From the sequence record PQ433349.1: DNA of 64,000 nt; one strand, 5' to 3'. How positions within the stretch are numbered: position 1 is the stretch's first letter; the number at the start of each line of letters is the position of its first letter. The DNA is from Escherichia phage vB_Ec-G1. Positions 36,483 to 62,433 of this stretch are shown one piece after another. A program made the translations under genes and the position numbers. The notes beneath the pieces were generated by a model. That model saw nothing but the letters and a program-made list of their open reading frames with translations. It searched no databases and was not told the origin of the DNA.

Positions 36483-36502
36483 AACAATAAAAGGTTAACA
36501 TC

Positions 36503-36682: not shown

Positions 36683-36701
36683 AAGTTTTAGTCTTATACT
36701 A

Positions 36702-36753: not shown

Positions 36754-36779
36754 ACTAACCAAAAAGAGAGAGTGACACC

Positions 36780-37145: not shown

Positions 37146-37151
37146 AAAGCA

Positions 37152-37210
37152 TTGACAGCACGAATAAAAAGAGTAAACTGTATTACATAGAGAGCGGGAA
37201 TAGTTCCCGC
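37152..37210 (+). promoter_or_regulatory. cassette 9: promoter + stem-loop
   Basis: TTGACA then GCGGGAAtagTTCCCGC. Confidence 0.5.
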
Positions 37211-37234
37211 CTCACTGAAAAAGAGAGAAAAATC

Positions 37235-37474
37235 ATGGCTAAATCTAAAATGTACAACGGTCACAAAAACAAAACTCATTGGAATGTAAGCCTGTGGATT
37301 AATAACGATGAGGGATTGTATCGGTTTGCATTGGGATTGATCAATGAGTGCGGTAATAAAGATCAGGCGGCTGATTTAATGTGCTACCGTTTGAAACAGG
37401 ATGGAATCACTACAACGCCAGACGGCTTTAAGTATAGTAAAACTGCAATCCGCGCCGCTATGGTTGGAATGTAA
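37235..37474 (+). CDS. hypothetical protein (79 aa)
   Basis: Track ORF after cassette 9. Confidence 0.5.
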   Translation: MAKSKMYNGHKNKTHWNVSLWINNDEGLYRFALGLINECGNKDQAADLMCYRLKQDGITTTPDGFKYSKTAIRAAMVGM

Positions 37475-37483
37475 TAAAAACAG

Positions 37484-37544
37484 TTGACAACGTTTAAAAT
37501 TAGTGTAAGATGTATCACATAGGGCGGGAAATGGTTTCCCGCTC
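37484..37544 (+). promoter_or_regulatory. cassette 10: promoter + stem-loop
   Basis: TTGACA-N16-TAAGAT then GGGCGGGAAatggtTTCCCGCTC. Confidence 0.55.
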
Positions 37545-37568
37545 ACAACAGAAGAGAGATTAAAGATT

Positions 37569-37796
37569 ATGGCTATCAATATTGTTCGCGTATCCGGTAC
37601 CGTTGGTAACTCCCAGGTTGTAGCAGTTATCACAGAGAAGAAAGGGGATGATCTTCACTCTTCCTTGAATAGCTGGGCGGTCGCTAACTTCGGGCAATGG
37701 TCGAGCGTTGAGTACATCGAATCCTACCAGGTGCCGACGATTAGCCTAACCGATCTCAACGTTGATCGCTTGTTGTGCCTGGATGAATTAATCTGA
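37569..37796 (+). CDS. hypothetical protein (75 aa)
   Basis: Track ORF after cassette 10. Confidence 0.5.
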   Translation: MAINIVRVSGTVGNSQVVAVITEKKGDDLHSSLNSWAVANFGQWSSVEYIESYQVPTISLTDLNVDRLLCLDELI

Positions 37797-37806
37797 AAAA
37801 AGATTA

Positions 37807-37868
37807 TTGACACCGGAAAGAAAAAGAGTAGAATATATTACATAGGGCGGCGGAATGGTCCACCGCTC
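37807..37868 (+). promoter_or_regulatory. cassette 11: promoter + stem-loop
   Basis: TTGACA then GGGCGGCGGaatggtCCACCGCTC. Confidence 0.55.
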
Positions 37869-37891
37869 ACAACAGAAGAGAGATTATCACG

Positions 37892-38107
37892 ATGGCTAAT
37901 ATCCGCACTTTACTGAAAAATGCAAGTCAAGTTTTATTTTCAGATGACGAGTATTTCAATAAAGACATTACAGGCGTGAAAAATTTAAAAGACGTGAAGG
38001 ATGTTATCGGTATCCGTGGATCTTTACGTAAGGGCGATTACTACGGTAACAAGGTGCAATATAAACTGTCAAAGGATTACAATTTTACTTTGACAATTAT
38101 TTCATAA
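37892..38107 (+). CDS. hypothetical protein (71 aa)
   Basis: Track ORF after cassette 11. Confidence 0.5.
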   Translation: MANIRTLLKNASQVLFSDDEYFNKDITGVKNLKDVKDVIGIRGSLRKGDYYGNKVQYKLSKDYNFTLTIIS

Positions 38108-38113
38108 AACCGC

Positions 38114-38173
38114 TTGCAATACTGCAAAAATAAAGTAAACTATATTCATCAAGGCGGGGAATGGTCCGCCGCC
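38114..38173 (+). promoter_or_regulatory. cassette 12: promoter + stem-loop
   Basis: TTGCAA-like -35 then GGCGGGGaatggtCCGCCGCC hairpin. Confidence 0.45.
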
Positions 38174-38197
38174 TAACAAAGAGAAGAGGAAAACATC

Positions 38198-38365
38198 ATG
38201 ATCACTTTCGCTACCCGTGAAGCCGCTCGCAACGTTGCACGTAAAGTTAACGCCGCCAACCTGGGCGCTACGCTTAAAGCCCCGGTGAAAGATGAATCAG
38301 GCAAATGGATCTTCCCTGGTCTGCGTCATGCTGACAAGTTAGGTACTTTAAGCCTTAAAAAATAA
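38198..38365 (+). CDS. small basic protein (~55 aa) starting MITFA
   Basis: Below track cut-off; shares MITFA N-terminus with next ORF. Confidence 0.4.
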   Translation: MITFATREAARNVARKVNAANLGATLKAPVKDESGKWIFPGLRHADKLGTLSLKK

Positions 38366-38368
38366 TCG

Positions 38369-38403
38369 TTGACTTTTCGTTATAGCGCCTTACAATGGGC
38401 GCT
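38369..38403 (+). promoter_or_regulatory. cassette 13 variant: promoter with palindrome overlapping -10
   Basis: TTGACT-N16-TACAAT; TATAGCGCC...GGCGCTATA inverted repeat spans the -10. Confidence 0.45.
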
Positions 38404-38439
38404 ATAGAGAAGAGAAACCACTGCTAACAAGGAAACATC

Positions 38440-38661
38440 ATGATCACTTTCGCTATTGTCGCCGTTGTCGCTGGTCAGGTTTACGTAAACGATACATTCA
38501 CCACAGAAGACAAGGCCGCAGGAGACATAACCGCCGTTTACAATGAGTGCAAGGCAGTAGAAAGGATGTTAGCGCCTTGTATGCTAATGAGTGAACGCCA
38601 GGACGGGATAACAGTATTTACTAACATTGAAACAGGGTACCAAATGGTAGTAACAAAATAA
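38440..38661 (+). CDS. hypothetical protein (73 aa) starting MITFA
   Basis: Track ORF. Confidence 0.5.
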   Translation: MITFAIVAVVAGQVYVNDTFTTEDKAAGDITAVYNECKAVERMLAPCMLMSERQDGITVFTNIETGYQMVVTK

Positions 38662-38664
38662 AGC

Positions 38665-38723
38665 TTGACACGGATTTAATTTTTAGTAAACTGTTACACG
38701 TAGGGCGGGAATAGTTCCCGCTC
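38665..38723 (+). promoter_or_regulatory. cassette 14: promoter + stem-loop
   Basis: TTGACA then GGGCGGGAAtagTTCCCGCTC. Confidence 0.55.
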
Positions 38724-38740
38724 AAAAAGAGAGAAAGACC

Positions 38741-39094
38741 ATGAAAGCACAAAATGCAATTAAAGAGTACATCCTTGCCGCTATCGATTTTAATGATTAC
38801 GGTATTACAACCGAAAAAGAGAAGATCGCGGAATTGATGCGCCGTTTTAATTCCGAGTACTGGTACCCTGATAACCAATCACGTTTTAATTATAGTATTG
38901 TTAAAGCACTTGCATCATGGTTACAAGGCTTGCCATCAGATATCAATATCGCTTTCGAATATTGGGAAATTGATCGCCTGTTAACATCCTGGGGATACAT
39001 TAAAGAGAATAGCAGCGATGATAAAATCCAACGAGAAAGGGAAAATTATTGGCTTTATATTGCAGGCGTGATCCTTGCTTGCTCTTATGAATGA
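38741..39094 (+). CDS. hypothetical protein (117 aa)
   Basis: Track ORF after cassette 14. Confidence 0.55.
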   Translation: MKAQNAIKEYILAAIDFNDYGITTEKEKIAELMRRFNSEYWYPDNQSRFNYSIVKALASWLQGLPSDINIAFEYWEIDRLLTSWGYIKENSSDDKIQRERENYWLYIAGVILACSYE

Positions 39095-39100
39095 TAAACC

Positions 39101-39154
39101 TTGACAATTTTACAAAACAGTTTAAATTAACAATATAGCGGCAATGGTGCCGCT
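39101..39154 (+). promoter_or_regulatory. cassette 15: promoter + stem-loop
   Basis: TTGACA then AGCGGCaatggtGCCGCT. Confidence 0.5.
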
Positions 39155-39173
39155 CATATGAAGAGGAAACAAA

Positions 39174-39320
39174 ATGAATACATCTAATCGCGCAGAAAAA
39201 ATTCAATCTTCCAAGATCCGCAAGGCCTGGAACGAGGAAGTGATCCGCAAAGGCGACAAGCGCAATAAAACAAAGCGCGGGAAGAGTGACAAATATAATT
39301 GGATGGATTTAGAGGATTAA
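39174..39320 (+). CDS. small basic protein (~48 aa)
   Basis: Below track cut-off; RBS AGAGGAAA; followed by terminator. Confidence 0.4.
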   Translation: MNTSNRAEKIQSSKIRKAWNEEVIRKGDKRNKTKRGKSDKYNWMDLED

Positions 39321-39327
39321 CATAACA

Positions 39328-39355
39328 AGGGCGCACCAAGCGCCCTTTCTTTTTA
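39328..39355 (+). terminator. rho-independent terminator
   Basis: AGGGCGC-acca-AGCGCCCT hairpin followed by TTCTTTTTAT. Confidence 0.65.
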
Positions 39356-39375
39356 TATACAGAGGATAAACAAAG

Positions 39376-39561
39376 ATGACTTTAAACGAGCTTAAAACAG
39401 CCTACAACGCAACATTAAAAATAGCCGTGCGTTACCGTGATGCGTATGGTTTTATCGCGCAGGGCGTGATCCTGGGCTTTTCTGACGATGGTTTGATCTA
39501 TGTTGATGCACATCACAACAAGGTTAAACCTGAAAACGTCATTAACATAAAATATCTTTAA
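39376..39561 (+). CDS. small hypothetical protein (61 aa)
   Basis: Track ORF. Confidence 0.45.
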   Translation: MTLNELKTAYNATLKIAVRYRDAYGFIAQGVILGFSDDGLIYVDAHHNKVKPENVINIKYL

Positions 39562-39567
39562 AAACGG

Positions 39568-39627
39568 TTGACACCATAACCGGACCTGTTAAACTGTATT
39601 ACATCAGGCGGGGGAATAGTTCCCCAC
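39568..39627 (+). promoter_or_regulatory. cassette 16: promoter + stem-loop
   Basis: TTGACA then GGCGGGGGAAtagTTCCCC. Confidence 0.5.
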
Positions 39628-39647
39628 CATACAAAAAGGTAAATATT

Positions 39648-39854
39648 ATGATCACCGCAAAACAAGAAAAAATTATTATCGACGTTGCAGCCGTTGCCGC
39701 TATTGCTATTATTGGATCTTATTATGATACCCGTTTCCCGTCGGCTATGCATGAGATCGCCGCCGTTGCATCAGTTGGCGTGCTGTTTTACGTTGGTAAA
39801 CGCTATTTATCACCAATGATTAACAAGCTAACACCGTGGAAAAATAAAGGTTGA
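39648..39854 (+). CDS. small membrane protein (68 aa)
   Basis: Track ORF; hydrophobic segments. Confidence 0.5.
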   Translation: MITAKQEKIIIDVAAVAAIAIIGSYYDTRFPSAMHEIAAVASVGVLFYVGKRYLSPMINKLTPWKNKG

Positions 39855-39905
39855 TCCTGCTTTATATTGTGTTATAGTTATCGTGTAGGGCGGCAATGGT
39901 GCCGC
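39851..39905 (+). promoter_or_regulatory. cassette 17: promoter + stem-loop
   Basis: TTGATC -35 then GCGGCAatggTGCCGC hairpin. Confidence 0.45.
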
Positions 39906-39926
39906 GCCCCCTTTGAGGATGAAATC

Positions 39927-40211
39927 ATGAGTAAAGCTAACACCGTGCTAATGTTTTCCTTGGTTAATGATGCCGCTTACTTGTCCAACATGACGCAGGA
40001 GGGTAACACATTAACGGCAACATTCACCAATAAGCTTAATCGAGTGATCATCATCTCACTGAAAACAATTAGTAAAGGCGTTTACTCGTTAGCTTATCAT
40101 TGGATCACTGATACCAACGAGACAAGCCAGGACTATAGCGCCCCTTTCCCTGAATCAATGGCACGGGAGATCATCGCCGCCGTTGTAAATGATGGTTTGT
40201 TTACTGCATAA
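39927..40211 (+). CDS. hypothetical protein
   Basis: Track ORF 39867..40211 trimmed to ATG after hairpin/RBS. Confidence 0.5.
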   Translation: MSKANTVLMFSLVNDAAYLSNMTQEGNTLTATFTNKLNRVIIISLKTISKGVYSLAYHWITDTNETSQDYSAPFPESMAREIIAAVVNDGLFTA

Positions 40212-40229
40212 AATAATTTAGAAAAAGGC

Positions 40230-40286
40230 TTGCAATCATTTTGAGATAGTGTATATTTAATTCATAGGGCGGCGGGAATAGTTCCC
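40230..40286 (+). promoter_or_regulatory. cassette 18: promoter + stem-loop
   Basis: TTGCAA-like -35 then GGCGGGAAtagTTCCC. Confidence 0.45.
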
Positions 40287-40309
40287 AAGGCAAACGAGAG
40301 GATTACACG

Positions 40310-40429
40310 ATGAGCAAGTACACAGTAGAATACACGGTACAAAATCCGGCAGTATCCGAAGGTAAAAAGATGACATTTGCCATCAGTATAATCGCTTTCG
40401 TTGTCACTATCTTATTAATCATCTTATAA
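40310..40429 (+). CDS. small hydrophobic peptide (~39 aa)
   Basis: Below track cut-off; C-terminal transmembrane helix; RBS GAGAGGA. Confidence 0.3.
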   Translation: MSKYTVEYTVQNPAVSEGKKMTFAISIIAFVVTILLIIL

Positions 40430-40439
40430 GGTGCGTACC

Positions 40440-40601
40440 ATGAAAACAACAGACATTATCAAAGAGATCGCCCTTGCCGCTGACGTTGAGATCGAGGAAG
40501 TGATCGCGCTCAATCTTACAGAAGAAGACTTGCGCAATTATGAAGCGGAAAGCGTGAAAGCAAGCGGCGCGGTCCTGGCATATAATCCGGCTAACAAGTA
40601 A
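40440..40601 (+). CDS. small acidic protein (~53 aa)
   Basis: Below track cut-off; same direction, short spacing. Confidence 0.3.
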   Translation: MKTTDIIKEIALAADVEIEEVIALNLTEEDLRNYEAESVKASGAVLAYNPANK

Positions 40602-40610
40602 GGGGATAAC

Positions 40611-40760
40611 ATGAATCCGAAAGATATGCAAGCATGGAAAGGGTACGACGATCTAAGCGCCTTGCGCAATAAGTCAAGCCGTAACCTTAGACGGTTAGAA
40701 GCAAAGAAAAAGAAAAACAGTTTGACAAGTCCGCTTAATCTGGTAAAGTGTATCTCGTAG
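40611..40760 (+). CDS. small basic protein (~49 aa)
   Basis: Below track cut-off; GGGGA RBS; 3' end overlaps next cassette. Confidence 0.25.
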   Translation: MNPKDMQAWKGYDDLSALRNKSSRNLRRLEAKKKKNSLTSPLNLVKCIS

Positions 40761-40778
40761 GGCGGCAATGATGCCGCT
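40722..40778 (+). promoter_or_regulatory. cassette 19: promoter + stem-loop
   Basis: TTGACA then GGGCGGCaatgatGCCGCTC. Confidence 0.55.
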
Positions 40779-40798
40779 CACAAGAAGAGAGAAAAATC

Positions 40799-41083
40799 AT
40801 GAAGATCACAAAAAGCCTAACTAATTATGCAGCACGTCGCGGATTATGCTTAACCGTTGAAAACTTAGGGAAAGAAGATTTTTTGTGTTTTTGGGAGCTT
40901 GAAAATGATTGCGAGTGGATGTTTTCTTATTCTATCTGCGAAGATCAAAACGGTTGTTTGTTAACCTGGCGCGGTAATATCTATTTACCGCAAGAAATTA
41001 AAGAGGAATTACCAGGTACGATCATGACAGAGAGACAGCTTAAGGAAGTGATCAATTTTGTAGGGCAAAACATTAAAAAATAA
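40799..41083 (+). CDS. hypothetical protein (94 aa)
   Basis: Track ORF after cassette 19. Confidence 0.55.
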   Translation: MKITKSLTNYAARRGLCLTVENLGKEDFLCFWELENDCEWMFSYSICEDQNGCLLTWRGNIYLPQEIKEELPGTIMTERQLKEVINFVGQNIKK

Positions 41084-41084
41084 T

Positions 41085-41146
41085 TTGACAGCAGGCAAAC
41101 AACGTAGTAAAGTTTATCACATAGGGCGGGAAATGGTTTCCCGCTC
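41085..41146 (+). promoter_or_regulatory. cassette 20: promoter + stem-loop
   Basis: TTGACA then GGGCGGGAAatggtTTCCCGCTC. Confidence 0.55.
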
Positions 41147-41167
41147 ACAGCAGAAGAGAGACACATC

Positions 41168-41338
41168 ATGATCCCGACTATGTTTTATGTATCGCGCAAA
41201 GGTCACAATATTTTTTGGTCTGAAGATTTAAATGAAGCTATGACGTTTGCCCGTGATCGTGTTGCTATCGGTGGCGTTAATATCACCGTAACCGATGAAA
41301 ACGGCATTGAATACTATAACGGCGACGATGAAGAGTAA
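41168..41338 (+). CDS. small hypothetical protein (~56 aa)
   Basis: Below track cut-off; follows cassette 20; followed by AAGCTGTATT...AATACAGCTT hairpin. Confidence 0.4.
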   Translation: MIPTMFYVSRKGHNIFWSEDLNEAMTFARDRVAIGGVNITVTDENGIEYYNGDDEE

Positions 41339-41397
41339 TTAACAACCTGGAAGCTGTATTTTTACAATACAGCTTAAAAGGTGTAGTAAAATAATTC

Positions 41398-41467
41398 TTG
41401 ACAATAGTTTGTTACTTGATAGAATGTATCACGTAGGGCGGGGCAATAAGGCAACGCCCATTAATGA
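41398..41467 (+). promoter_or_regulatory. cassette 21: promoter + stem-loop
   Basis: TTGACA then GGGCG...CGCCC hairpin with larger loop. Confidence 0.45.
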
Positions 41468-41477
41468 GGGTAGAATC

Positions 41478-41582
41478 ATGTTAGAGAAAATTTTCACGGT
41501 TGTAATAGTAGGCCTGGCGTTATCGGTTGGAGTGGTTGCAACTATGGCTAACATGATCCTATCTTCCCACGGTATCGATTAA
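41478..41582 (+). CDS. small hydrophobic peptide (~34 aa)
   Basis: Below track cut-off; single transmembrane helix. Confidence 0.3.
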   Translation: MLEKIFTVVIVGLALSVGVVATMANMILSSHGID

Positions 41583-41592
41583 GGTGAAACAG

Positions 41593-41808
41593 ATGATCAC
41601 GAACAAAACAGGCAAAACAGAATTTTTACGCGGCTTACAAGTCGGTAAGCCTGAGATCTGGCATTGCAGCAAGTCGGCGCATAACGAAATGAAAGACTTT
41701 ACCGCTACTTTACAACGTGTTAAAATATCTATCACACAGAAAAAAGCCTTGTTAGTAGTAGAAAACGAGATCCCGCAAACTATTATTATTGTCGAGCGTA
41801 CAGCATGA
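41593..41808 (+). CDS. hypothetical protein
   Basis: Track ORF 41584..41808 trimmed to ATG after AAGGTG RBS. Confidence 0.5.
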   Translation: MITNKTGKTEFLRGLQVGKPEIWHCSKSAHNEMKDFTATLQRVKISITQKKALLVVENEIPQTIIIVERTA

Positions 41809-42191
41809 AAACAGAAATCATTATTGAAATCATCAACGGTTATAAAGAAGCCTTTATTTTTGCTGAATCAGCCAGGGATCACGAAGGTAATTTTATTGAT
41901 AACTTAGACGATTATGATTTTTCAGATCAAGCCCATCAGCGGATCGCCCAGGATGTAACAGCCTTTATTAATGCTAATCTTGCCGCTATCTCTGAGGCAA
42001 TGAGCGACGGCGCAACAGCCAACCAGATCGGGAATGATTTACATTTTACCCGTAACGGTCACGGCGTAGGATTTTGGGATCGCCCTGAAATATACACCAC
42101 TAACACGGCGAACCGCCTAACCAATGCAGCTAAGTTTATGCCGAATGTGTCGGCTTACATTGGTGAAGATAATTTGATTTATATTGAATAA
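41805..42191 (+). CDS. hypothetical acidic protein (128 aa)
   Basis: Track ORF, overlapping start/stop with upstream gene. Confidence 0.55.
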   Translation: MKTEIIIEIINGYKEAFIFAESARDHEGNFIDNLDDYDFSDQAHQRIAQDVTAFINANLAAISEAMSDGATANQIGNDLHFTRNGHGVGFWDRPEIYTTNTANRLTNAAKFMPNVSAYIGEDNLIYIE

Positions 42192-42197
42192 AAAGTA

Positions 42198-42254
42198 TTG
42201 ACACAGATCGCCAGTGTGCTAATATTTACCACGTAGGGCGGCAATGGTGCCGCC
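42198..42254 (+). promoter_or_regulatory. cassette 23: promoter + stem-loop
   Basis: TTGACA-N17-TAATAT then GGGCGGCaatggtGCCGCC. Confidence 0.55.
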
Positions 42255-42272
42255 GATAACGAGGAAAGTAAA

Positions 42273-42572
42273 ATGGAAACTATCGCTATTGTTACCGTAG
42301 AAAAACTGGTTGTTGGTGATGTATTCGCGTTAATGGTGCCTAACAGCAGCAAGCTGGGCGCTTATGAAGTGATGGACCATAAAAATGAATCATTTGGCGA
42401 CGGTTGCACAATGGCGGTAAGATCCTTAAAGGATGGAATCATCCGCCAGGCTAACTGGCACAAAGGGAATCAAGTCGGTTTAATATCAGCTAATTTCTTG
42501 CCAGAAGAGCAAACATTAGACCAACTATCAGGCGGTAAGACGTTAGCCGAACTACTGGAAACAGCGATCTAA
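42273..42572 (+). CDS. hypothetical protein (99 aa)
   Basis: Track ORF after cassette 23; followed by GGGGCGgcaaCGCCCC hairpin. Confidence 0.55.
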   Translation: METIAIVTVEKLVVGDVFALMVPNSSKLGAYEVMDHKNESFGDGCTMAVRSLKDGIIRQANWHKGNQVGLISANFLPEEQTLDQLSGGKTLAELLETAI

Positions 42573-43720: not shown

Positions 43721-44688
43721 GTTGATAGCTTAAACCTATGAAAAACCGACACAGAACAAAATTGCATAATTTGCGCTATCGAGCTAATCAACCATTAAAC
43801 GAATAACCATACATCCCAGGGAAACAGGTTGTTAGAGAGCTATTTAGAGCGGTTAAAATCGATCTACAACCAACAACAAACCATCAAAAACACCCTTTTA
43901 CCTCCTTTCTAGTGCAATGATAACCATTATCATCTACCTATGATTATCTATTCAATATAAGTGCATAACTATAATGTTGATAATAGTTCGCAACAACTAA
44001 CCCACCAACAACCTAAAACAATAAGCAAACTAATCATAATCAAAGGAATAATAGCAAGATGATTGATAACGACAAACAATCAAACCATGATGAATATTAA
44101 GCAAGATAACGATAACACGACAAAACAACCAACTAACGAACAATAACAAACGAAACCATTAAAAGATCAACTATTAGCAAAATAGTGCCTATTGCCATAA
44201 TAGTGACTTAATGAAATCATTACAAAATGAATCATTCCAAGGATCATCATTAGCACGCTACGCCGGACACGTAGCGAGCTAATAATAAGCCAACTACACC
44301 CCAACAATCATAACCATCGGTGACGGTTATTTCTTGTTACTGCGTAGCTTGCAATAATTGCAAGCGTAATGACGCTTACACTTATTGCGCTGGCTTATTA
44401 TTAGCATTATATGTAATTACCAAGATCATAACATTAGCGCAATAACAATAATCATTGTGGTAATTACAAGATGAAATCATTAGCAAGATGAATAATTGCA
44501 CGTAGCAACATGAGCGAATAGCGACAGGTTGCATAGTGTGCACATAGTGTATAAACATACAAGAAAATAAAGGCTAATCTTTTGGGGGCGAATACTATCG
44601 CGTAGCGATATGTTGAGCACCTTCTCTTAAACGTAAATAAAATCAGAAAATTCTTGATTTATTTTAGTTTTTATGTTAATAAACGTTT

Positions 44689-44709
44689 AAATAATAATCA
44701 TTCTCATAT
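44689..44709. promoter_or_regulatory. Fur-box-like operator site
   Basis: AAATAATAATCATTCTCATAT resembles the sites at 33541-33620. Confidence 0.35.
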
Positions 44710-44867
44710 AAATAATAGTCTGCTTGTCATGAGCGGGATTAGTTGACATTGTTCCGTCATATGATGAAGTTGCCAAACCATTGATAAATAAGTGTTTGTG
44801 TGATTTATAATCAAGTGGCCCACCTTGTCGCTATGTTGGCATGAGCCTTGCATAAGTCATTGAATAC

Positions 44868-44888
44868 GAATGATAATTATTCTCATTC
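44868..44888. promoter_or_regulatory. Fur-box-like near-perfect palindrome
   Basis: GAATGATAAT-T-ATTCTCATTC, 10-1-10 inverted repeat with one mismatch. Confidence 0.45.
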
Positions 44889-45228
44889 GCATGATATTTG
44901 GGAATTGTCGCTGCGTGGACCTGACGGCCCGAAAATTCGCGTTAAGCACTTCTTACGTATGCGCCATGATTTTTGCCATATGATATTGATTCTATTAGAT
45001 ATTCTTGCCATGATTGCCATGAAACAGGGTGTCCCGAAATAATCTCTCCCCGTAGATATTTTGGGTTACTTTTTATACAAGAGTGGGGTGTCAAAAATAA
45101 TCGGTATATATGGGATAATTGATAGGAATCCCCTATGATAATTCGATTGTAATTCCCTAAGATTGATCGTATGATGTTGGTGATTGATGATTGCCATGAA
45201 AGATGGCTAACGATGAGAGGAGATTGTC

Positions 45229-45603
45229 ATGCAAGAGAGTAAAAATGTTCCGTTGAGTAGTGCAACATTGCTTCGCTTCTATAAAGCATGGATTGCCAAC
45301 TATCCTGCAATGAATCGCACAACGAGTGGCTTATGTGGTTGTCTGGTAGATTATGTAAATGATTTTGTTGGTGAGACAACCAGAGAAGAAGATAGAAGAT
45401 GGCGGGATAGTTTGTTGGACCGTTTGAAATATGAAATGAGGAAACAATTTACATGTGCAGGGCTGGACTATAATCTTCCGTTCAATGCAGATTGCATGGA
45501 TTACCTTTCAGAGTGTATAAACTTGGCGTGTCATACCAACACGTTACGTCTTCAGTGGGTGAAAGACAGAATTGAAGATGCAAATAATGCTTGCATTGAA
45601 TAA
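45229..45603 (+). CDS. hypothetical protein, member of 5-copy paralog family
   Basis: 124 aa; shares FY..W...GLC, LPF and R..WVKDR pattern with four other ORFs. Confidence 0.55.
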   Translation: MQESKNVPLSSATLLRFYKAWIANYPAMNRTTSGLCGCLVDYVNDFVGETTREEDRRWRDSLLDRLKYEMRKQFTCAGLDYNLPFNADCMDYLSECINLACHTNTLRLQWVKDRIEDANNACIE

Positions 45604-45652
45604 AGATGTTTGTATAATGGATGACATAACAGATAGCCAATGAGGAGATGAA

Positions 45653-45862
45653 ATGAAGAATTTGAAAACTGTCACAATGTTCTTGACTGATCCTACACGT
45701 GTGCAAGCACTGGCTAAAGCCAGCCGTGTAGCTGTAGAATTCCAAAACTTTAAGCCGTCCGTTGTGACAGGCAGTGAAACGTGTGTTATCGATTTCATTA
45801 ACGAATACTTCCGAGGGAATCCGGTTGGTCGTTACTTCATTAAGGGTCTAAAGGATGCATAA
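45653..45862 (+). CDS. hypothetical protein (69 aa)
   Basis: Track ORF with GAGGAG RBS. Confidence 0.5.
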   Translation: MKNLKTVTMFLTDPTRVQALAKASRVAVEFQNFKPSVVTGSETCVIDFINEYFRGNPVGRYFIKGLKDA

Positions 45863-45863
45863 C

Positions 45864-46085
45864 ATGAAACGCATGAAAATTCGTATTGAGAATGATGGTG
45901 GTTATAAAGGATTGGCACATGCAAAATTTCCACTTGTGCTGGAAGCTACGGTGGAATACAGTGGGCTTGCTCATGTGCGATTCTCGAAGATGATGGAAGT
46001 GCAGGAATGGTTTTGGGACGAGATAGATGCACGAGAAGGGGAAGATTATGTTTTCCTTCCTCACGAATATGAAATTGTTTATTAA
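45864..46085 (+). CDS. hypothetical protein, paralog of 50474..50695
   Basis: Track ORF trimmed to ATG; shares MKIR..., EWF(W/E), EG.DYVF motifs. Confidence 0.5.
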   Translation: MKRMKIRIENDGGYKGLAHAKFPLVLEATVEYSGLAHVRFSKMMEVQEWFWDEIDAREGEDYVFLPHEYEIVY

Positions 46086-46097
46086 AGGTTGTGTGCA

Positions 46098-46337
46098 ATG
46101 ATCACACCACAACAGAATGAAGCAGCAATGGATCTTCTTGATAGTTTGTATTTCGATAATTGGTACTCTGAATGTGAATGGATGAATATGCAAACTCTGA
46201 AAGAGAAGACAAAAGCGTTGATTACAGTAGATCAATTTCTTGCAGAGACGGAAAGAATGAATTATGATATGGTATCTCGCGCACGACGCGTTTCCATTTT
46301 CAATAAAATGTTAGCATTATGGGGAGGTAGAAAATGA
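46098..46337 (+). CDS. hypothetical protein
   Basis: Track ORF 46089..46337 trimmed to first ATG. Confidence 0.5.
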   Translation: MITPQQNEAAMDLLDSLYFDNWYSECEWMNMQTLKEKTKALITVDQFLAETERMNYDMVSRARRVSIFNKMLALWGGRK

Positions 46338-46795
46338 GACAACCATCTATACTGGAAGCGCATGTGCAATGTGTTGTAGATTATGTCAAAGAACACTCAA
46401 GTTTGTTGAATGTAACCTGTGCAGTGCAAAACGATGTAGGTATTGTCTGTGTGCAACATATCTTATCTGAAACTCGTTATGAAGTATTTCGTGCCACGTT
46501 GTTTGGATGTGATCGAGTGCATGTAAACTTCCTGGACTCCAATTATCGTTATGCTTTAGAAAATATTGATGATTATCTTCCTTGCTCTCCGACAGGATAT
46601 GTAATGGTAACAGCAAACGAAGTAACACCGAGCAACAGTGAACAGGAAGCTTTGTTACGGAAGAAAATACGCCAACTGCAAGTGTTGAATGAACTGAAAG
46701 AAGAGATTGAAAAAGAACTAAAAGAAGATTTTGGTATGCTTCCAAAAGACGCTTTGAAATGGTATGATGAGTTAGGAGGAGAGAACAATGTTTAA
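46334..46795 (+). CDS. hypothetical protein (153 aa)
   Basis: Track ORF. Confidence 0.55.
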   Translation: MRQPSILEAHVQCVVDYVKEHSSLLNVTCAVQNDVGIVCVQHILSETRYEVFRATLFGCDRVHVNFLDSNYRYALENIDDYLPCSPTGYVMVTANEVTPSNSEQEALLRKKIRQLQVLNELKEEIEKELKEDFGMLPKDALKWYDELGGENNV

Positions 46796-47246
46796 AGAAG
46801 GTCATGTCTACCGTTTCCAGGATGAGGATTATATGCGATTATATTCTACCTTTGATAACAGTATTGCTGCTATCATTGGAGAGAATTTTTTCGAGGTGTT
46901 GAGCACTGATGCAAATGGTAATATCTTGTCAATGGTTGTGATAGGTATGAGAGATGGTATTATCACTGCTAGTGATGGGGATCGTTACATAATCAATTCT
47001 GCTCATATAGATTATTTTGTTGACGGCGGTGTTCGTGGTGGTCGTGGAAAACCACAAGAAGAACCTATTGATAAAACAAAAGAAGAGTGGTATGTTGTAA
47101 TGACTGGTGACACGTGTATTTCTGGATCTCAAAGTTATGAAGAAGCTTTGAAAGAGGCAGCAGAGCATAAAATGTCTAATCCTACCGAAGAGGTTGAAGT
47201 TTATAAACGTTTGGTTGTTGCTACCATCGGCGTATCTTTTGTTTAA
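46788..47246 (+). CDS. hypothetical protein, tandem MFK-family paralog 1
   Basis: 152 aa; N-terminal MFKEGHVYRF and C-terminal EEALKEA...VEVYKRLVVATIG shared with next gene. Confidence 0.55.
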   Translation: MFKEGHVYRFQDEDYMRLYSTFDNSIAAIIGENFFEVLSTDANGNILSMVVIGMRDGIITASDGDRYIINSAHIDYFVDGGVRGGRGKPQEEPIDKTKEEWYVVMTGDTCISGSQSYEEALKEAAEHKMSNPTEEVEVYKRLVVATIGVSFV

Positions 47247-47258
47247 AAGGGGAATGTT

Positions 47259-48044
47259 ATGTTTAAAGTAGGTTTTGTTTATAATTTCAAATCGGAAGAT
47301 ACCAAAAATAATTTTGGTAAAGCTAGTATTCGTAACGCTTTCTTTGTAGGTTGCATTCAAGACAGTAAATTTAAAGTTTTGGATGTTGATTTTCTTGGTT
47401 CTGTGTCCAAGGTGAAGGTATTAGACACAAATAAAATCATCGAAGGTGGTTCTGGGCTTTTCCCTGAAGGTTATAAGCTTGTAAGTTGTATGGATTATGC
47501 TCGTTTTGAAGAACATACCCCTGAAGATTATGAAGATTCTCCTACAGGGGGCTGTGTCTTTGTAGAAGGTGGTGTCTATAAGTTTGCAAGTGAACAAGAT
47601 CGTAAGCTTTTCGCCAATTATATTGACGGCGGACAAACGACAAACAATGTAAACCGAAAAATTTCCGATCTTATTGGCGATGATCCTTTCGTGATCACAA
47701 AGATGGTTGGACAAGATGTAACAGCAATCCGTAGGCTTGTATGTAATACAAATCATGTAGCAGGTGAAGGCTGGTTCAAGGAAGCTTGTGCACTGCTAAT
47801 CAAAAGTGATAACCCTTATTTTAAAAATATTAAAGATGCTGTTGAGCCTAAACAAGAGGAACCCGCAGCGAATTTTAAACACTATGCTATTGTTAAAGGT
47901 ATGAATGTCCAACTGGTGTCACATTCTTACGAAGAGATCGCCACAGAAGCAAAAAAGATGAAGGAAGAATACCCAATTTCTACTGTTGAGATCTATGAGC
48001 GTATTGGTGTTGTTACTATTGAGCCTACTGCGGTAATAAAATAA
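47259..48044 (+). CDS. hypothetical protein, tandem MFK-family paralog 2
   Basis: 261 aa; MFKVGFVYNF start and YEEIATEA...VEIYERIGVVTIEP C-terminus. Confidence 0.55.
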   Translation: MFKVGFVYNFKSEDTKNNFGKASIRNAFFVGCIQDSKFKVLDVDFLGSVSKVKVLDTNKIIEGGSGLFPEGYKLVSCMDYARFEEHTPEDYEDSPTGGCVFVEGGVYKFASEQDRKLFANYIDGGQTTNNVNRKISDLIGDDPFVITKMVGQDVTAIRRLVCNTNHVAGEGWFKEACALLIKSDNPYFKNIKDAVEPKQEEPAANFKHYAIVKGMNVQLVSHSYEEIATEAKKMKEEYPISTVEIYERIGVVTIEPTAVIK

Positions 48045-48053
48045 GGAGTTATT

Positions 48054-48491
48054 ATGTTCAAAGTTAATGCTGTTTACTGTTTCAAAAGTAAAGCTGCCTG
48101 TGAAGCTTTCTCTATGATCTCTGATGAAAATTTCAAAATGGCAGCTTTGATTGAAGGGTCTTGTTTCCGCGTCGAGGATGTTAGTGAATCAGGGTCTGTT
48201 TGCTCATTGACTTTATTGGACAGCGGGGATATTATTGAAGCTGGACAGTATCCGTTCAGAAGTTGGGAGATATTGTTAGCTCGCGGAGAGCGTAACTTTT
48301 TTATGTGCGTGTCTGCGGGGGAAGTTGTGAAAGAAACTAAGGATGTTTCTGTTTACAATTCTGAATTTATAAGTTATAGTGAGTATCAACATCTGGAAGG
48401 CATTGTTGGTCACTTGTTATCTCTGATTGACATTGAATGTGACCTGCCTGAATCATTGAAAGAAGAGTTGAAAGCATTAGATCTGTTATAA
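48054..48491 (+). CDS. hypothetical protein, tandem MFK-family paralog 3
   Basis: 145 aa; MFKVNAVYCF start. Confidence 0.55.
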   Translation: MFKVNAVYCFKSKAACEAFSMISDENFKMAALIEGSCFRVEDVSESGSVCSLTLLDSGDIIEAGQYPFRSWEILLARGERNFFMCVSAGEVVKETKDVSVYNSEFISYSEYQHLEGIVGHLLSLIDIECDLPESLKEELKALDLL

Positions 48492-48518
48492 TGTTTCGCA
48501 CAACGAAAGGAGAATAAG

Positions 48519-48818
48519 ATGAATCTGACCGAACAGTTACGCCGTATTGCAAAAGAAGCTTCCTTCAACTTCCCTGTTGAAGAAGTGATTGAGACATGTT
48601 TTGCTGAAGCACGAGCGGGAAACTCTTCAAGAAATTTCACGCCATCTGATTTTGGTCTGGATAATTCCCCTACCCACCCAGGGGAGATCTACAATCAGGT
48701 GAAGTGGATGGATGAAGCAGTAGCAATTCTTCGTGAGCGTGGGCTTATTGTTTATAAAGAAATGGATCTGAACGGGGCATACGAGTGGATCACTATTGAT
48801 TGGTCGGAGGTGAAATAA
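48519..48818 (+). CDS. hypothetical protein (99 aa)
   Basis: Track ORF with AAGGAGA RBS. Confidence 0.55.
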   Translation: MNLTEQLRRIAKEASFNFPVEEVIETCFAEARAGNSSRNFTPSDFGLDNSPTHPGEIYNQVKWMDEAVAILRERGLIVYKEMDLNGAYEWITIDWSEVK

Positions 48819-49027
48819 TGGTTACTATCACGTTGACAGTTACACAAGAGCAAGCAGAAGAATTACGTGATGCACTGGCATATATGGGACGCTGTTATTA
48901 TATGCCTCACAAATCTCAAGATGTTTTTGCTACAGCCGTTGAGAAAGCTTTAAACAAATACCGAGAAACTCATGCCGTTCCTAAAGTATCAGCAGAAGAG
49001 TTTGGCACTTGGCACGAAGTTCACTGA
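48818..49027 (+). CDS. hypothetical protein
   Basis: Track ORF 48800..49027 trimmed to ATG after GGAGGTG RBS. Confidence 0.5.
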   Translation: MVTITLTVTQEQAEELRDALAYMGRCYYMPHKSQDVFATAVEKALNKYRETHAVPKVSAEEFGTWHEVH

Positions 49028-49037
49028 GGAGGTTTCG

Positions 49038-49271
49038 ATGAAAGGTAACAAGATGAAAGTTAATCAAGTGCCGAGCGCATACACTTTGTGGCTTGCGCGA
49101 GCGTTACACCAGACGATCAAAGACCCTAAGAAGCCAATGAAGAGTGGGAAGAAGTTTATGTCTAAGGGCAAAACAACCTTTGGCTTCACTCGTATGTCTG
49201 TTAAGATGAAAAGGCTGGGGTATAAGCCAAACTACGCTCGTTACCCTTCCGAATACAACTGGTTTGATTAA
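49038..49271 (+). CDS. basic hypothetical protein
   Basis: Track ORF 48972..49271 trimmed to ATG after GAGGAGG RBS. Confidence 0.5.
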   Translation: MKGNKMKVNQVPSAYTLWLARALHQTIKDPKKPMKSGKKFMSKGKTTFGFTRMSVKMKRLGYKPNYARYPSEYNWFD

Positions 49272-49286
49272 AGAGGAGAACAAAAC

Positions 49287-49571
49287 ATGAAAACATCTAT
49301 TCGCGTAAAACATGATCCAAACAGCAGTTACCCATATGTGTATGTTGAACGTCATGAAGGGGACTATTACACCATAAAACGTAAAGTCCCAACTGATACA
49401 GGGTTTAACTTTGATGTTATTGCACTGGATGATCAAGGTGTTGATAATCTGGTAAATGCATTACTCGCATTGAAGGAAGTACGACATGAAAATCAGACTA
49501 AAGGTAAAGTGGCTTTCGATTCTTGTGATCGTTTAGCCGAAGAGATTGCCGAATGGCGTGATACTCACTAA
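49287..49571 (+). CDS. hypothetical protein (94 aa)
   Basis: Track ORF with AGAGGAGA RBS. Confidence 0.55.
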   Translation: MKTSIRVKHDPNSSYPYVYVERHEGDYYTIKRKVPTDTGFNFDVIALDDQGVDNLVNALLALKEVRHENQTKGKVAFDSCDRLAEEIAEWRDTH

Positions 49572-49586
49572 AACAGGAGAAAGATT

Positions 49587-49763
49587 ATGGCTACTTTTCA
49601 ACAACTGAAAGATGTTTCACGTTTAGTAAGAAAAATCCGAGAAGCAGACGCTGCTGTGCGGAATGCATTAACGCCAGCAGAGCGTGAAGATCTTGAAGAG
49701 GAGGTGAAAACAGCCGAGAATGCTTTTGCTGCGTATCTTTCAACACTGTATACAGGAGGTTAA
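49587..49763 (+). CDS. small hypothetical protein (~58 aa)
   Basis: Below track cut-off; CAGGAGA RBS; fills gap. Confidence 0.4.
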   Translation: MATFQQLKDVSRLVRKIREADAAVRNALTPAEREDLEEEVKTAENAFAAYLSTLYTGG

Positions 49764-50078
49764 ATGTCAGAAGAACTTAAAGAATTTTATCAGGCATATC
49801 ATAACTGGCTGTTAGCTGGTGCTCCAGATAATAATCCTTTCTGGCATGATAAAGGATTATGTAGTTGCCTCTACCTTTGGACTGGAGGTTATGATGATCT
49901 AAATTATGAAATGCAAATGCAATTCCGTGAGGCAGGATTGTCTGAAGAATACCCGTTTGATGACGGAGACTGGTTTAAATATGATTTTGCACAAAGAAAC
50001 GGGCTGCTACATTTAAATGCTGCCCGTATAAAATGGGTAAAAGATCATGCTACACAGGAGGATGTGCAATGCCTATAG
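49764..50078 (+). CDS. hypothetical protein, member of 5-copy paralog family
   Basis: 104 aa; FYQAYHNWL...GLCSCL...R..WVKD pattern. Confidence 0.55.
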   Translation: MSEELKEFYQAYHNWLLAGAPDNNPFWHDKGLCSCLYLWTGGYDDLNYEMQMQFREAGLSEEYPFDDGDWFKYDFAQRNGLLHLNAARIKWVKDHATQEDVQCL

Positions 50079-50269
50079 TGTTTGTTTTCTTGGCAATTGT
50101 TATGGTTGTTCTTTTCGCCGCATGGCTTTGGGATTTTGACCCAGGAGCCGCGCAGCAAAGAGCTACAGACTTGAAAGAACAATGTATTGTGCTCAAACAT
50201 GAACGAAATGCGGAGAAATTTCTTGACCTGGAGTGTGATCGCCTTGTAAGATACAAGCAAGATAAATAA
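50069..50269 (+). CDS. small membrane protein
   Basis: Track ORF 50033..50269 trimmed to ATG after AGGAGGA RBS; N-terminal transmembrane helix. Confidence 0.5.
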   Translation: MPIVFVFLAIVMVVLFAAWLWDFDPGAAQQRATDLKEQCIVLKHERNAEKFLDLECDRLVRYKQDK

Positions 50270-50283
50270 CTTTGAGGTGCAAA

Positions 50284-50472
50284 ATGGTAATTGAGATTAA
50301 ACTTGAATATGCTGGGGCTGTTGCCTTGATCGCACAAATGCTTGGAGCAAAGATTGAAGAAGTGTATATCAACGCCTGGAGCGTAGAGATTGATGTTCCT
50401 ATGGACAACATTGCTAATCGCTTGCTGGTGGCAGAGTGTGAACGCACCAACATAATCTACAAAGGAGCATAA
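50284..50472 (+). CDS. small hypothetical protein
   Basis: Track ORF 50272..50472 trimmed to ATG after GAGGTG RBS. Confidence 0.45.
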   Translation: MVIEIKLEYAGAVALIAQMLGAKIEEVYINAWSVEIDVPMDNIANRLLVAECERTNIIYKGA

Positions 50473-53092: not shown

Positions 53093-53365
53093 ATGAATAA
53101 AGATCGGTTTCTTTCTTTAGTCGCGGAAGCGCCTTTTGATGTTCTTGGGGTGAGATTATGGAAAGACAGAAACTATGGGTTAGATGTTCAAACATATTCT
53201 CTTTGGTTGGTTGGGGAGCACAGCTTAGATGAAAGCTTGTGCATGGGTAGGGATTCTCGTTCCCTCTGTTTAAAATTTAGAAGCTTAGAACGCGCAAACA
53301 AAGAGCAAGAAAAACTAACGAGGTGGCTAAATGAAAACAAGCGCAGGGTTGATGGAGTTTTATAA
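53093..53365 (+). CDS. hypothetical protein (90 aa)
   Basis: Track ORF. Confidence 0.5.
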   Translation: MNKDRFLSLVAEAPFDVLGVRLWKDRNYGLDVQTYSLWLVGEHSLDESLCMGRDSRSLCLKFRSLERANKEQEKLTRWLNENKRRVDGVL

Positions 53366-53657
53366 AATTTATCTAGCATGGATTGATGTTGGTGCTCCTG
53401 ATGGTAAACCTTTTCGGCGGGATTGTGGTTTGTGTGCCAACTTGTTCGATTATGTGCACAGAGGTAATTACAACCCCATTATAACAACCTTGTCAGATGA
53501 AATGCACGCACAGTTTTACCACAAAGGGTTGAGTCAAGGACTCCCTTTCAATGAGAACTACGATGCATATGTCTTAGAATCAGATGCAGAGGTATGTCAC
53601 CTGAACGTGGACAGGATTAATTGGGTAAGAGATCGTATTGCAGAGGAGGATGAATAA
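53331..53657 (+). CDS. hypothetical protein, member of 5-copy paralog family
   Basis: 108 aa; FYKIYLAWI...GLCANL...LPF...R..WVRDR pattern. Confidence 0.55.
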   Translation: MKTSAGLMEFYKIYLAWIDVGAPDGKPFRRDCGLCANLFDYVHRGNYNPIITTLSDEMHAQFYHKGLSQGLPFNENYDAYVLESDAEVCHLNVDRINWVRDRIAEEDE

Positions 53658-55478: not shown

Positions 55479-55490
55479 ATAATAAATACC

Positions 55491-55519
55491 TTGACAAGTG
55501 TTTATTCGTTTTGTAAAGT
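55491..55519 (+). promoter_or_regulatory. sigma70-like promoter upstream of recombinase gene
   Basis: TTGACA-N17-TAAAGT. Confidence 0.45.
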
Positions 55520-55548: not shown

Positions 55549-56220
55549 ATGAAAAAGTTTGTTGTTTACAGTCGTCTTTCTAAACAGAAAAAAGGTGAGG
55601 CACAATATGGTATGGAGAGCCAAGAGAACGATATCCGTTACTTCTTAGACTCTGTGCCTGATGCTGAAGTTATTGGTCAATTTTCTGAATACTATTCGGG
55701 TAAGGGCGATTGGAAGCAACGTAAGGAACTGGTTAAAGCGGTTGAAATGTGTAAAGCTACCGGAGCAACTTTATTGGTAGCTAAAGTTGACCGCTTGGGT
55801 CGTAACAACGCCTCCGTAGCAACTCTTCTAGAAATGATCGATGTTAAGATAGCCATCATGCCAGACGCAGATAAAATGGTTATACAGCTTCTGTCTGTTC
55901 TGGCTGAACAAGAAGTTAGAGGTATTGCTGATCGTATTAAAAAGGGTCTTGCTGTAGCAAAAAGCAAAGGTGTTTTATTAGGCAGTGCTAATCCTAAAAC
56001 TGCTGCTGCACGTAGAAAAGGAAAAATGGAATACAATTCTGTTAAAGCAGACGCTTTTGCAGAGACATTCCGTGAACGCTTAGAAATCCTTAGAGATTTA
56101 AATACACCTTACAAAACTATTGCTGAAAAATTCAATAGTAAGAAAATCGCAACAGCACGTGGTGGTAAGTGGGATGCTAAAACTGTTTCTCGCTTGTGTG
56201 CTAGATTGAACATTAAATAG
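55549..56220 (+). CDS. serine recombinase (resolvase/invertase family)
   Basis: Y-S-R-L-S-K-Q catalytic serine motif, LLVAKVDRLGRN and ADRIKKGLAVAKSKG resolvase motifs, C-terminal DNA-binding-like region; ATG after AGGAG RBS. Confidence 0.7.
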   Translation: MKKFVVYSRLSKQKKGEAQYGMESQENDIRYFLDSVPDAEVIGQFSEYYSGKGDWKQRKELVKAVEMCKATGATLLVAKVDRLGRNNASVATLLEMIDVKIAIMPDADKMVIQLLSVLAEQEVRGIADRIKKGLAVAKSKGVLLGSANPKTAAARRKGKMEYNSVKADAFAETFRERLEILRDLNTPYKTIAEKFNSKKIATARGGKWDAKTVSRLCARLNIK

Positions 56221-56228: not shown

Positions 56229-56639
56229 ATGAAACAAGAAAATGAATCTGTAGATCACTTAATCATGCTGTCAGCCCTTTTTGCCGGATGGGACGTATTT
56301 TTTGAAAATTTGTTCAATTCTGCTACAGATGGTTCCGATTTTATGCGGCAGTTTAAACGACGAACTGTTGAGGACTATGCTTTCTATTCAGGTCGGATTG
56401 AAAAAGGTTACGAAGATACAAATACAACACTCACCATTAAAGTTTTAGATGTGATGTTTAGTGTTATAGATGCTATCGACGAAAGTCTTCCGATCCTGGA
56501 CAATTGTAATACGAAAGCCTATGTTTACAAAATAGCTCGTGCTTATGTGTCTGCAAACAGTTGTCTTCTTTCCACGCAGATTGCCGTGAACAATCTTGCC
56601 AACTTGTTCGACGAAGGAGAAACTTTTTATGACAATTGA
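56229..56639 (+). CDS. hypothetical protein (136 aa)
   Basis: Track ORF with GGAGAGGA RBS. Confidence 0.55.
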   Translation: MKQENESVDHLIMLSALFAGWDVFFENLFNSATDGSDFMRQFKRRTVEDYAFYSGRIEKGYEDTNTTLTIKVLDVMFSVIDAIDESLPILDNCNTKAYVYKIARAYVSANSCLLSTQIAVNNLANLFDEGETFYDN

Positions 56640-56994
56640 TTTGAAGTGTAAAAGGATTCTTTTAGATTTCTATAATAATTGGTTAGAACACCTCCGTCTC
56701 TTTCCAAGAGAAAGTGGTTACGCTGATGTTGGCTTATGCCGAGGTCTACGTATGTATATAAGTGATGAATTTCGGGCCGAGCATTCTTTAGCATATTCTG
56801 TTTATGGTATGCAATTAGCCAGTTTTGAAAACGCTGGCTTAGATACAACTTTCCCATTTAACACAGCAAAATCTTTTGAGCAAGAGTGTAAGGAAAAACG
56901 TTGCATGTTTAATGAAAAACGTGTACAGTGGGTTAAGGATCGAGTTAAACAACTGGAACAAGAGTTGGATTTCTTCTATGATGAGGCAGAATAA
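56629..56994 (+). CDS. hypothetical protein, member of 5-copy paralog family
   Basis: Track ORF 56596..56994 trimmed to ATG after AAGGAGA RBS; FYNNWL...GLCRGL...FPF...R..WVKDR pattern. Confidence 0.55.
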   Translation: MTIDLKCKRILLDFYNNWLEHLRLFPRESGYADVGLCRGLRMYISDEFRAEHSLAYSVYGMQLASFENAGLDTTFPFNTAKSFEQECKEKRCMFNEKRVQWVKDRVKQLEQELDFFYDEAE

Positions 56995-62385: not shown

Positions 62386-62409
62386 GAACCCGCTTCGGCG
62401 GGTTTTTTC
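62386..62409 (+). terminator. rho-independent terminator
   Basis: AACCCGC-ttcg-GCGGGTT hairpin followed by TTTTTC; same hairpin as at 30928. Confidence 0.7.
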
Positions 62410-62433
62410 ATATCTGTAGCAATAGGAGGTCGT

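Follow-up and report, generated by a model that had tools for sequence, protein, structure and literature searches.

A small serine recombinase gene in the early region of Escherichia phage vB_Ec-G1 and a tentative resolvase-type role for its product

The open reading frame at 55549–56220 of the DNA analyzed here, a 64,000-nucleotide stretch of Escherichia phage vB_Ec-G1 (PQ433349.1; hereafter the window), is, as read from the sequence, a real and intact gene for a small serine recombinase. The product is predicted to be a catalytically competent, active enzyme, and this prediction is well supported. Our main reading of its function, a tentative one to which we give a probability of roughly 35%, is a resolvase-type enzyme (deletion or resolution) that works at one site per phage genome. 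It is reasonably well shown that two other roles, inverting a segment as a tail-fibre switch and acting on the repeated cassettes found in the window, do not apply.

The gene and its coding features are the following:
55549–56220, plus strand: small serine recombinase gene; ATG at 55549, stop codon ending at 56220; 223 amino acids
55539–55543, plus strand: AGGAG ribosome-binding site, read from the sequence, 5 nt ahead of the ATG
55549–55965, plus strand: catalytic domain and long E-helix, residues 1–139, with Y7, R9, S11, R58, D81, R82 and R85
55579–55581, plus strand: codon of the nucleophile S11, within the catalytic domain
55984–56217, plus strand: predicted C-terminal four-helix DNA-binding domain, residues 146–223, with the motif IAxxxNxxxIxTxRGxxW

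The 223-residue product matches the Pfam Resolvase family (PF00239) over residues 5–142 with an E value of 5e-18, and PHROG 125 ('DNA invertase') across its full length with an E value of 3e-32. In an alignment of 45 homologues, reaching down to about 30% identity, Y7, R9, S11, Q25, R58, D81, R82 and R85 are invariant. D81, R82 and R85 align with D67, R68 and R71 of the gamma-delta/Tn3 resolvase. A first-pass annotation of the window had described a small serine recombinase inside a lytic-phage early region, and the Resolvase match and the invariant catalytic set, with the catalytic serine in place on precise alignment, bear this out. Two of the motifs that it cited, VDRLGRN and RIKKGL, were found at residues 80–86 and 129–134. 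The third, given as Y-x-R-x-S-x-x-Q, is correct for Y-x-R-x-S and incorrect in the spacing of the glutamine: the N-terminal motif reads Y7-S-R9-L-S11-K-Q13, and the conserved glutamine is Q25. Matches of the protein in NCBIfam all lie far below threshold, and the PADLOC defence library contains no match to it.

The AF2 model of the protein (mean pLDDT 88.9) consists of a resolvase-type alpha/beta catalytic domain, a long E-helix (residues 109–139) and four more helices (residues 149–219). Structure comparison shows that the fold of the catalytic domain resembles those of the Sin, gamma-delta and TP901-1 catalytic domains. By sequence profile, Gin scores highest among the solved structures, and the catalytic domain is closer in sequence to small recombinases than to large serine recombinases. 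The C-terminal part is different. No HTH_7-type domain was found there with Pfam, which gives a weak match to the Recombinase family (PF07508) at residues 187–216, and the structural matches to the model that reach past the catalytic domain, best over the whole chain, are the integrases Bxb1 and SPbeta YokA. The C-terminal domain is thus similar to a portion of the "recombinase domain" found in large serine recombinases and not to the helix-turn-helix of Hin or the resolvases. With the large enzymes (Bxb1, phiC31, TP901-1, SPbeta) the phage protein has in common a motif of the type IAxxLNxxGxxTxxGxxW. They are, however, 400–700 residues long, whereas the phage protein has 223 residues, no zinc-ribbon and no coiled coil, and neither an attP-like site nor lysogeny accompanies it.

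The 3 kb around the gene is 98–99% identical to at least 62 records of Phapecoctavirus (Stephanstirmvirinae), the best match being Escherichia phage nieznany. Phapecoctavirus phages are lytic myoviruses with genomes of about 150 kb. Aligned blocks of the 64-kb window are approximately 94–99% identical to nieznany. By comparison with this annotated genome, the window carries replication genes on the minus strand, up to about 33 kb, followed by a long plus-strand block of small early genes. The physical ends of the genome are marked within the window:
44616–44944, no strand assigned: counterpart of the 329-bp direct terminal repeat

In the Schickermooser record the first 329 bp are repeated exactly as the last 329 bp, and this sequence maps to 44616–44944. 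Alignment puts the 343-bp terminal repeat annotated in phi92 at this position as well, and many public records begin at this point. Since the counterpart of the terminal repeat lies inside the window and records start there, the two physical genome ends are joined within the window. From the left one it is 10.9 kb to the start of the recombinase gene, which belongs to the block of small early genes.

Several other properties of this region were observed. Fur-box-like sequences are present at 33597–33615, in the divergent region, and at 44688–44716 and about 44865–44890, inside the terminal repeat. One of them, GTAAATGATAATCATTCTC, agrees with the E. coli Fur consensus at 16 of 19 positions, for which 0.08 matches are expected in the window, and the copies in the terminal repeat are conserved in phi92 (AAATGATAATCATTATCA). 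They may point to control by iron, or to binding of a host factor at the ends of the genome. Nieznany lacks 5.1 kb that lie immediately inside the left end (45260–50420), among them a gene with 91% identity to phi92 gp001. Isolates differ greatly in this mosaic early block, which aligns in 5–16 pieces per record. It contains at least four paralogous small open reading frames (45229–45603, 49764–50078, 53331–53657 and 56629–56994), all of which match phi92 gp006 and gp010; one of these paralogues lies just 3′ of the recombinase gene.

Directly 5′ of the gene lies a promoter-like site:
55491–55519, plus strand: sigma-70-like promoter; TTGACA at 55491–55496, 17-nt spacer, TAAAGT at 55514–55519

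The site scores 10 out of 12. The stretch contains 10 such matches where 10.9 are expected, so that it shows no enrichment, and the support for the promoter comes instead from relatives of the gene. By eye, a comparable −35/−10 pair with a 17–18-nt spacer was seen just 5′ of the gene in each of the five relatives from lytic phages that were inspected (phi92, L009, L010, L011 and phiWec181, of which L009–L011 are metagenomic). The promoter of its own that the first-pass annotation had assigned to the gene is therefore retained, though local enrichment does not add to it. Most likely, the host RNA polymerase would transcribe the recombinase early in infection from this sigma-70-type promoter.

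A tblastn search found the protein in 162 phage records. The identity is at least 99% in 62 of them, all Phapecoctavirus, and 100% in many of these. It is about 57% in Justusliebigvirus, including gene 053 of phi92 (annotated 'DNA invertase'), 55% in related Klebsiella phages and 35–39% in Vibrio phages of about 130 kb. A homologue with 30% identity is present in some isolates of the Vibrio cholerae phage ICP1, for example 2017_DRC_82 (L018, 4001–4756), where it sits among genes without standard ICP1 numbers, that is, in an accessory early region. Counted by genus name, the records with the recombinase equal those with the large terminase of nieznany: Escherichia 106, Klebsiella 10, Campylobacter 5, Phapecoctavirus 3 and Justusliebigvirus 3. 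Because the counts match genus by genus, the recombinase looks like a core gene that is apparently universal in Stephanstirmvirinae.

Nieznany, SF1-1 and phAPEC8 encode exactly the same protein; the phAPEC8 copy is intact and labelled 'putative site-specific recombinase'. When the four Phapecoctavirus copies from the window, nieznany, SF1-1 and phAPEC8 were compared, each pair differed at 7–16 codons. Every one of these differences is synonymous, which argues for strong purifying selection. The single exception found to an intact gene is the copy of Schickermooser (L014, 11303–11955), an isolate that was still propagated. It carries six small deletions (1, 1, 7, 1, 2 and 7 bp) within 250 bp of the catalytic half, one of them beside the Ser11 codon, and the C-terminal half has synonymous changes only. 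This broken copy represents either a recent inactivation or a local assembly problem. If the sequence is correct, the gene is dispensable in laboratory propagation.

The locus is constant in every Phapecoctavirus record whose context was examined: the gene, part of the leftmost early block, has the phi92 gp013 orthologue ahead of it. In phi92 and the metagenomic relatives it is located within a block of lysozyme, PhoH, methyltransferase and phosphatase genes. In phi92 it lies between gp054 and gp052, the nieznany orthologues of which are adjacent, with a terminator hairpin alone between them. DNA homology to phiWec181 begins at position 55481, three bases past the upstream stop codon and before the promoter, and ends at 55982, inside the gene. 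As both flanks are different, these boundaries suggest that the promoter and the gene are kept as a unit.

The two domains differ strongly in their conservation. The phiWec-type protein (P0005) is 94% identical to the window protein over residues 1–108 and 97% identical in the E-helix, and the identity is 37% over residues 146–223. Relatives whose N-terminal parts are 83–95% identical to the window protein have C-terminal identities of 36–68%. Since the C-terminal domain is hypervariable among such close relatives, the target specificity has probably changed repeatedly.

A genome-wide check for inverted-repeat crossover sites, as proposed in the first-pass annotation, was carried out on nieznany. 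Self-comparison of the complete genome gave no inverted-repeat pairs of at least 22 bp besides terminator hairpins. The sole long-range inverted match pairs the hairpin at 36438–36459 of nieznany (62387–62413 of the window) with a hairpin at 31715–31736, which is outside the window. Palindromes of the crossover form (12-2-12 with at least 10 matches) number 14 in the whole genome and 5–14 in shuffled sequences, and are therefore not enriched. All structural and tail-fibre genes of nieznany are on one strand, without reversed alternative exons. Indels aside, the window and nieznany are fully collinear; the megablast comparison of 24 kb with all phage records took the best place per record only, and small inversions in other isolates could escape it. 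The inversion of a distant segment, such as a tail-fibre switch, had been suggested earlier as one role of the enzyme. These results do not support it, and neither does a C-terminus that is not of the Hin/Gin kind. The earlier statement that no integrase, att-like site or invertible segment is seen near the gene holds for the window and for the whole of the closely related nieznany genome (about 96–99% identity).

Other candidate sites were considered. No terminal repeats or target duplications were found flanking the recombinase gene. The terminal repeat of the genome is conserved between genera and contains nothing recombinase-like; in phiWec181 it is about 75% identical, too diverged for co-variation to be read. 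Two features of nieznany annotated as 'repeat_region', at 25.5 and 40.7 kb, were considered and rejected, the two sequences being unrelated. Near-identical terminator hairpins at 62387–62413 and 30928–30954 of the window (AACCCGCTTCGGCGGGTTTT) form a direct repeat and are not recombination sites. One candidate lies next to the gene:
55480–55507, no strand assigned: weak imperfect dyad with its centre at the −35 hexamer, a candidate only for a site of binding or crossover; TAATAAATACCTT GA CAAGTGTTTATTC

In this dyad 9 of the 13 arm positions pair, a value that shuffled sequences equal in 24% of trials (p ~0.24). It is present once in the window, its nearest counterpart in the whole nieznany genome has 8 mismatches, and its right arm is not conserved in phiWec181. 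The intergenic space 5′ of the gene is 70 bp long and contains this one weak dyad, with no res-like array of subsites visible; such sites might be located within the adjacent open reading frames. When 14 homologous contexts were inspected for a dyad 5′ of the gene, it was significant in a Klebsiella plasmid alone and in none of the phage contexts.

The repeated cassettes, to which the first-pass annotation had also looked for a substrate, appear to be of another nature. About a dozen direct copies of a 50–75-nt unit, consisting of TTGACA, a 17-nt spacer, a −10 hexamer and a short GC hairpin, are present at 34267–42288. Each unit precedes a small open reading frame, and an inverted copy lies at 13026–13094. 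The stems vary between copies yet stay complementary (GGCGGCA/TGCCGCC versus GCGGGAA/TTCCCGC), and the loops vary in length. Because the stems change while complementarity is kept, the cassettes are better explained as an RNA element than as a protein recognition site. They look like early promoters of the sigma-70 type followed by a 5′ RNA stem-loop, and the suggestion that the recombinase acts on them was not upheld.

Relatives of the recombinase are common on small plasmids. Full-length homologues with 35–40% identity were found on 109 plasmids, 92 of which are non-mobilizable, and the match covers at least 80% of the query in 103 of the 109, the coverage being at least 95% for the full-length homologues. 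Small carriers include plasmids of 5.8–6.5 kb from Klebsiella, Marinovum and Synechococcus. The two plasmids that were inspected have few other genes each, and the one from Marinovum carries annotated replication and partition genes. The protein of the 5.8-kb Klebsiella plasmid is 36% identical over residues 3–220. In this Klebsiella aerogenes plasmid (L022, 4323–4356) a 16-2-16 imperfect palindrome, TATCATTTGTTTGCCG..CGGCAAATTTATGATA, lies 34 bp 5′ of the recombinase gene. It has the expected shape and is a good candidate for the crossover site of the protein family. Databases also gave 93 matching proteins of about 220 residues and 542 stretches of viral contigs encoding relatives. Some relatives adjoin primase/helicase genes in phages and satellites that encode a separate tyrosine or large serine integrase, and are thus not the integrase there. 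Others are found in viral contigs just 5′ of terminase genes or XerC/D-like integrases, and two prophage relatives are close to tail genes. No invertible segments were found beside the prophage relatives, and E. coli genomes contain no DNA related to the recombinase gene. From these comparisons, the recombinase can be assigned to a family of about 220-residue proteins of plasmids, phages and satellites with a short C-terminus like the recombinase domain.

The usual job of a lone serine recombinase on a small plasmid is multimer resolution. With full-length relatives common on very small plasmids, multimer resolution is the best supported of the three roles offered by the first-pass annotation. 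In the mechanism that we propose, dimers of the recombinase would bind one site per phage genome, possibly adjoining the gene. Two copies of the site in direct repeat on one replicating multimer would be brought together in a tetramer, which would cut both through Ser11, rotate and religate. In this way the multimer would be split into circular monomers while replication is in its early phase, in which templates are amplified. Paired sites are lacking, in agreement with a resolvase, for which a single site in each genome is enough, and the candidate dyad upstream of the gene is single-copy, as a system with one site per monomer predicts. The absence of rearrangements relative to nieznany, the palindrome ahead of the Klebsiella plasmid gene, and the relatives next to replication or packaging genes in elements with a separate integrase likewise favour a resolvase over an invertase. 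The phage protein and Tn3/gamma-delta resolvase, Sin and beta have a common catalytic domain, long E-helix and set of catalytic residues and a similar size (about 200–220 residues), and the small-plasmid setting of its full-length relatives is one in which multimer resolution is expected. It differs from them in the C-terminus, which is not the resolvase/Hin helix-turn-helix, and in about seven residues that are missing before the E-helix. Cre/loxP of P1 is likewise phage-encoded with one site per genome, and its task is to cyclise or resolve phage DNA in replication, not to integrate it. The analogy is limited to function: Cre belongs to the tyrosine recombinases, and the temperate phage P1 is maintained as a plasmid.

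A number of observations count against the resolvase reading. No multi-subsite res region is visible by the gene, where the 70-bp space offers a dyad at chance level, and palindromes of the crossover form are at shuffle level in the genome. The recombinase is carried by a strictly lytic phage that has fixed terminal repeats of 329 bp and packages from concatemers, and so has no obvious need for multimer resolution. Schickermooser was propagated with its six indels and so could do without the gene, if the sequence is correct. A conserved housekeeping site predicts neither the divergence of the binding domain (94% versus 37%) nor the differing loci. Finally, the 'resolvase' role of the plasmid relatives is itself inferred from their context.

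Other explanations must be weighed against this one. The enzyme could act on DNA other than that of the phage, be it the chromosome of the host, a cryptic prophage, a satellite or another phage infecting the same cell, and cause early site-specific rearrangement or breakage for offence or anti-defence. We regard this as unlikely. It is favoured by the host-type promoter and the position in the earliest-entering part of the genome, by a DNA-binding domain that diversifies much faster than the catalytic domain, as in conflict genes, and by the lack of a site detected in the phage genome. The gene is, in addition, dispensable in one laboratory isolate (Schickermooser), and the ICP1 homologue belongs to an accessory early block of some isolates. 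According to one source (PMC12529663), host serine invertases affect phage adsorption, which we counted on the same side. The lack of related DNA in E. coli genomes and of a PADLOC match speaks against such a target. The apparent universality over genera with different hosts fits a phage-intrinsic task better, and recombinases that evolve together with their own sites normally show a rapidly diverging binding domain as well. It seems rather improbable to us that a core early recombinase with a swapped binding domain would spare the phage genome and serve as a weapon or counter-defence against DNA of the host, a prophage, a satellite or a rival phage. A selfish cassette of promoter and recombinase, moving between intergenic positions in the manner of homing endonuclease genes or the IS607-type serine transposases, is decidedly improbable. 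The non-homologous loci in the sister genera (phi92 versus nieznany), the phiWec181 homology that begins ahead of the promoter with both flanks different, and the promoter accompanying every copy inspected would all agree with it. However, each genome has a single copy, its locus is constant in all Phapecoctavirus contexts examined, and no terminal repeats or target duplications flank it. The copies at the two loci are 57% identical, so that any move must be ancient, and early regions are generally mosaic and able to relocate any gene. The IS607-type enzymes have a MerR-like N-terminal domain followed by the catalytic domain; the order in the phage protein is reversed, with the catalytic domain N-terminal.

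An invertase of the Gin/Cin/Hin kind that flips a phage segment, as a tail-fibre or promoter switch, is largely refuted and deserves very little weight. Gin (Mu), Cin (P1), Hin and Pin are likewise small phage-borne serine recombinases; Gin is, by sequence profile, the closest solved structure to the catalytic domain, two prophage relatives are near tail genes, and several records as well as PHROG 125 use the name DNA invertase. Against this stand the results for nieznany given above: terminator hairpins as the only long inverted pairs, collinearity with the window, and structural genes on one strand. The phage has neither an invertible segment nor inverted crossover sites nor opposed tail-fibre exons, its recombinase has a DNA-binding domain other than the Hin-type helix-turn-helix, and the prophage relatives have no invertible segment beside them. 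Recombination of the promoter–hairpin cassettes at 34–42 kb, an integron-like deletion or shuffling of early genes, is scarcely plausible. The many direct copies of the unit and the many indels by which the early regions of isolates differ could be explained in this way. The covarying stems and variable loops point instead to RNA structure and not to a fixed protein site, the recombinase's own promoter has no hairpin, and repeats that are 60–93% identical allow ordinary homologous exchange without a site-specific enzyme. It is also most improbable that the protein does not recombine DNA at all and is a site-specific DNA-binding regulator or a decaying remnant. One broken copy (Schickermooser) and the failure to find a substrate would suit such a protein. 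The full catalytic set is nevertheless invariant in the family, and the 7–16 codon differences are all synonymous. A resolvase-type enzyme with one site per genome remains our tentative reading.

The gene is already public in dozens of genomes under the names "putative site-specific recombinase", "resolvase" or "DNA invertase". In the literature we found annotation-level mentions only and no functional study of this recombinase. Concatemer resolution by it has already been guessed in print (PMC10282059), and another paper states that two of these phages have no recombinase (PMC10269720), the gene having been overlooked there. A paper on 'Adi' of ICP1 deals with another protein.

Phage-therapy screens treat 'recombinase' genes as signs of lysogeny. 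The gene described here does not encode an integrase, there is no sign of an attachment site, and E. coli genomes hold no copies of it. The recombinase has long been kept under strong purifying selection in a lytic lineage, with its binding domain swapped. Locating its site would show either that lytic phages with terminal repeats use site-specific resolution in replication, or that they carry recombinases directed against other DNA.
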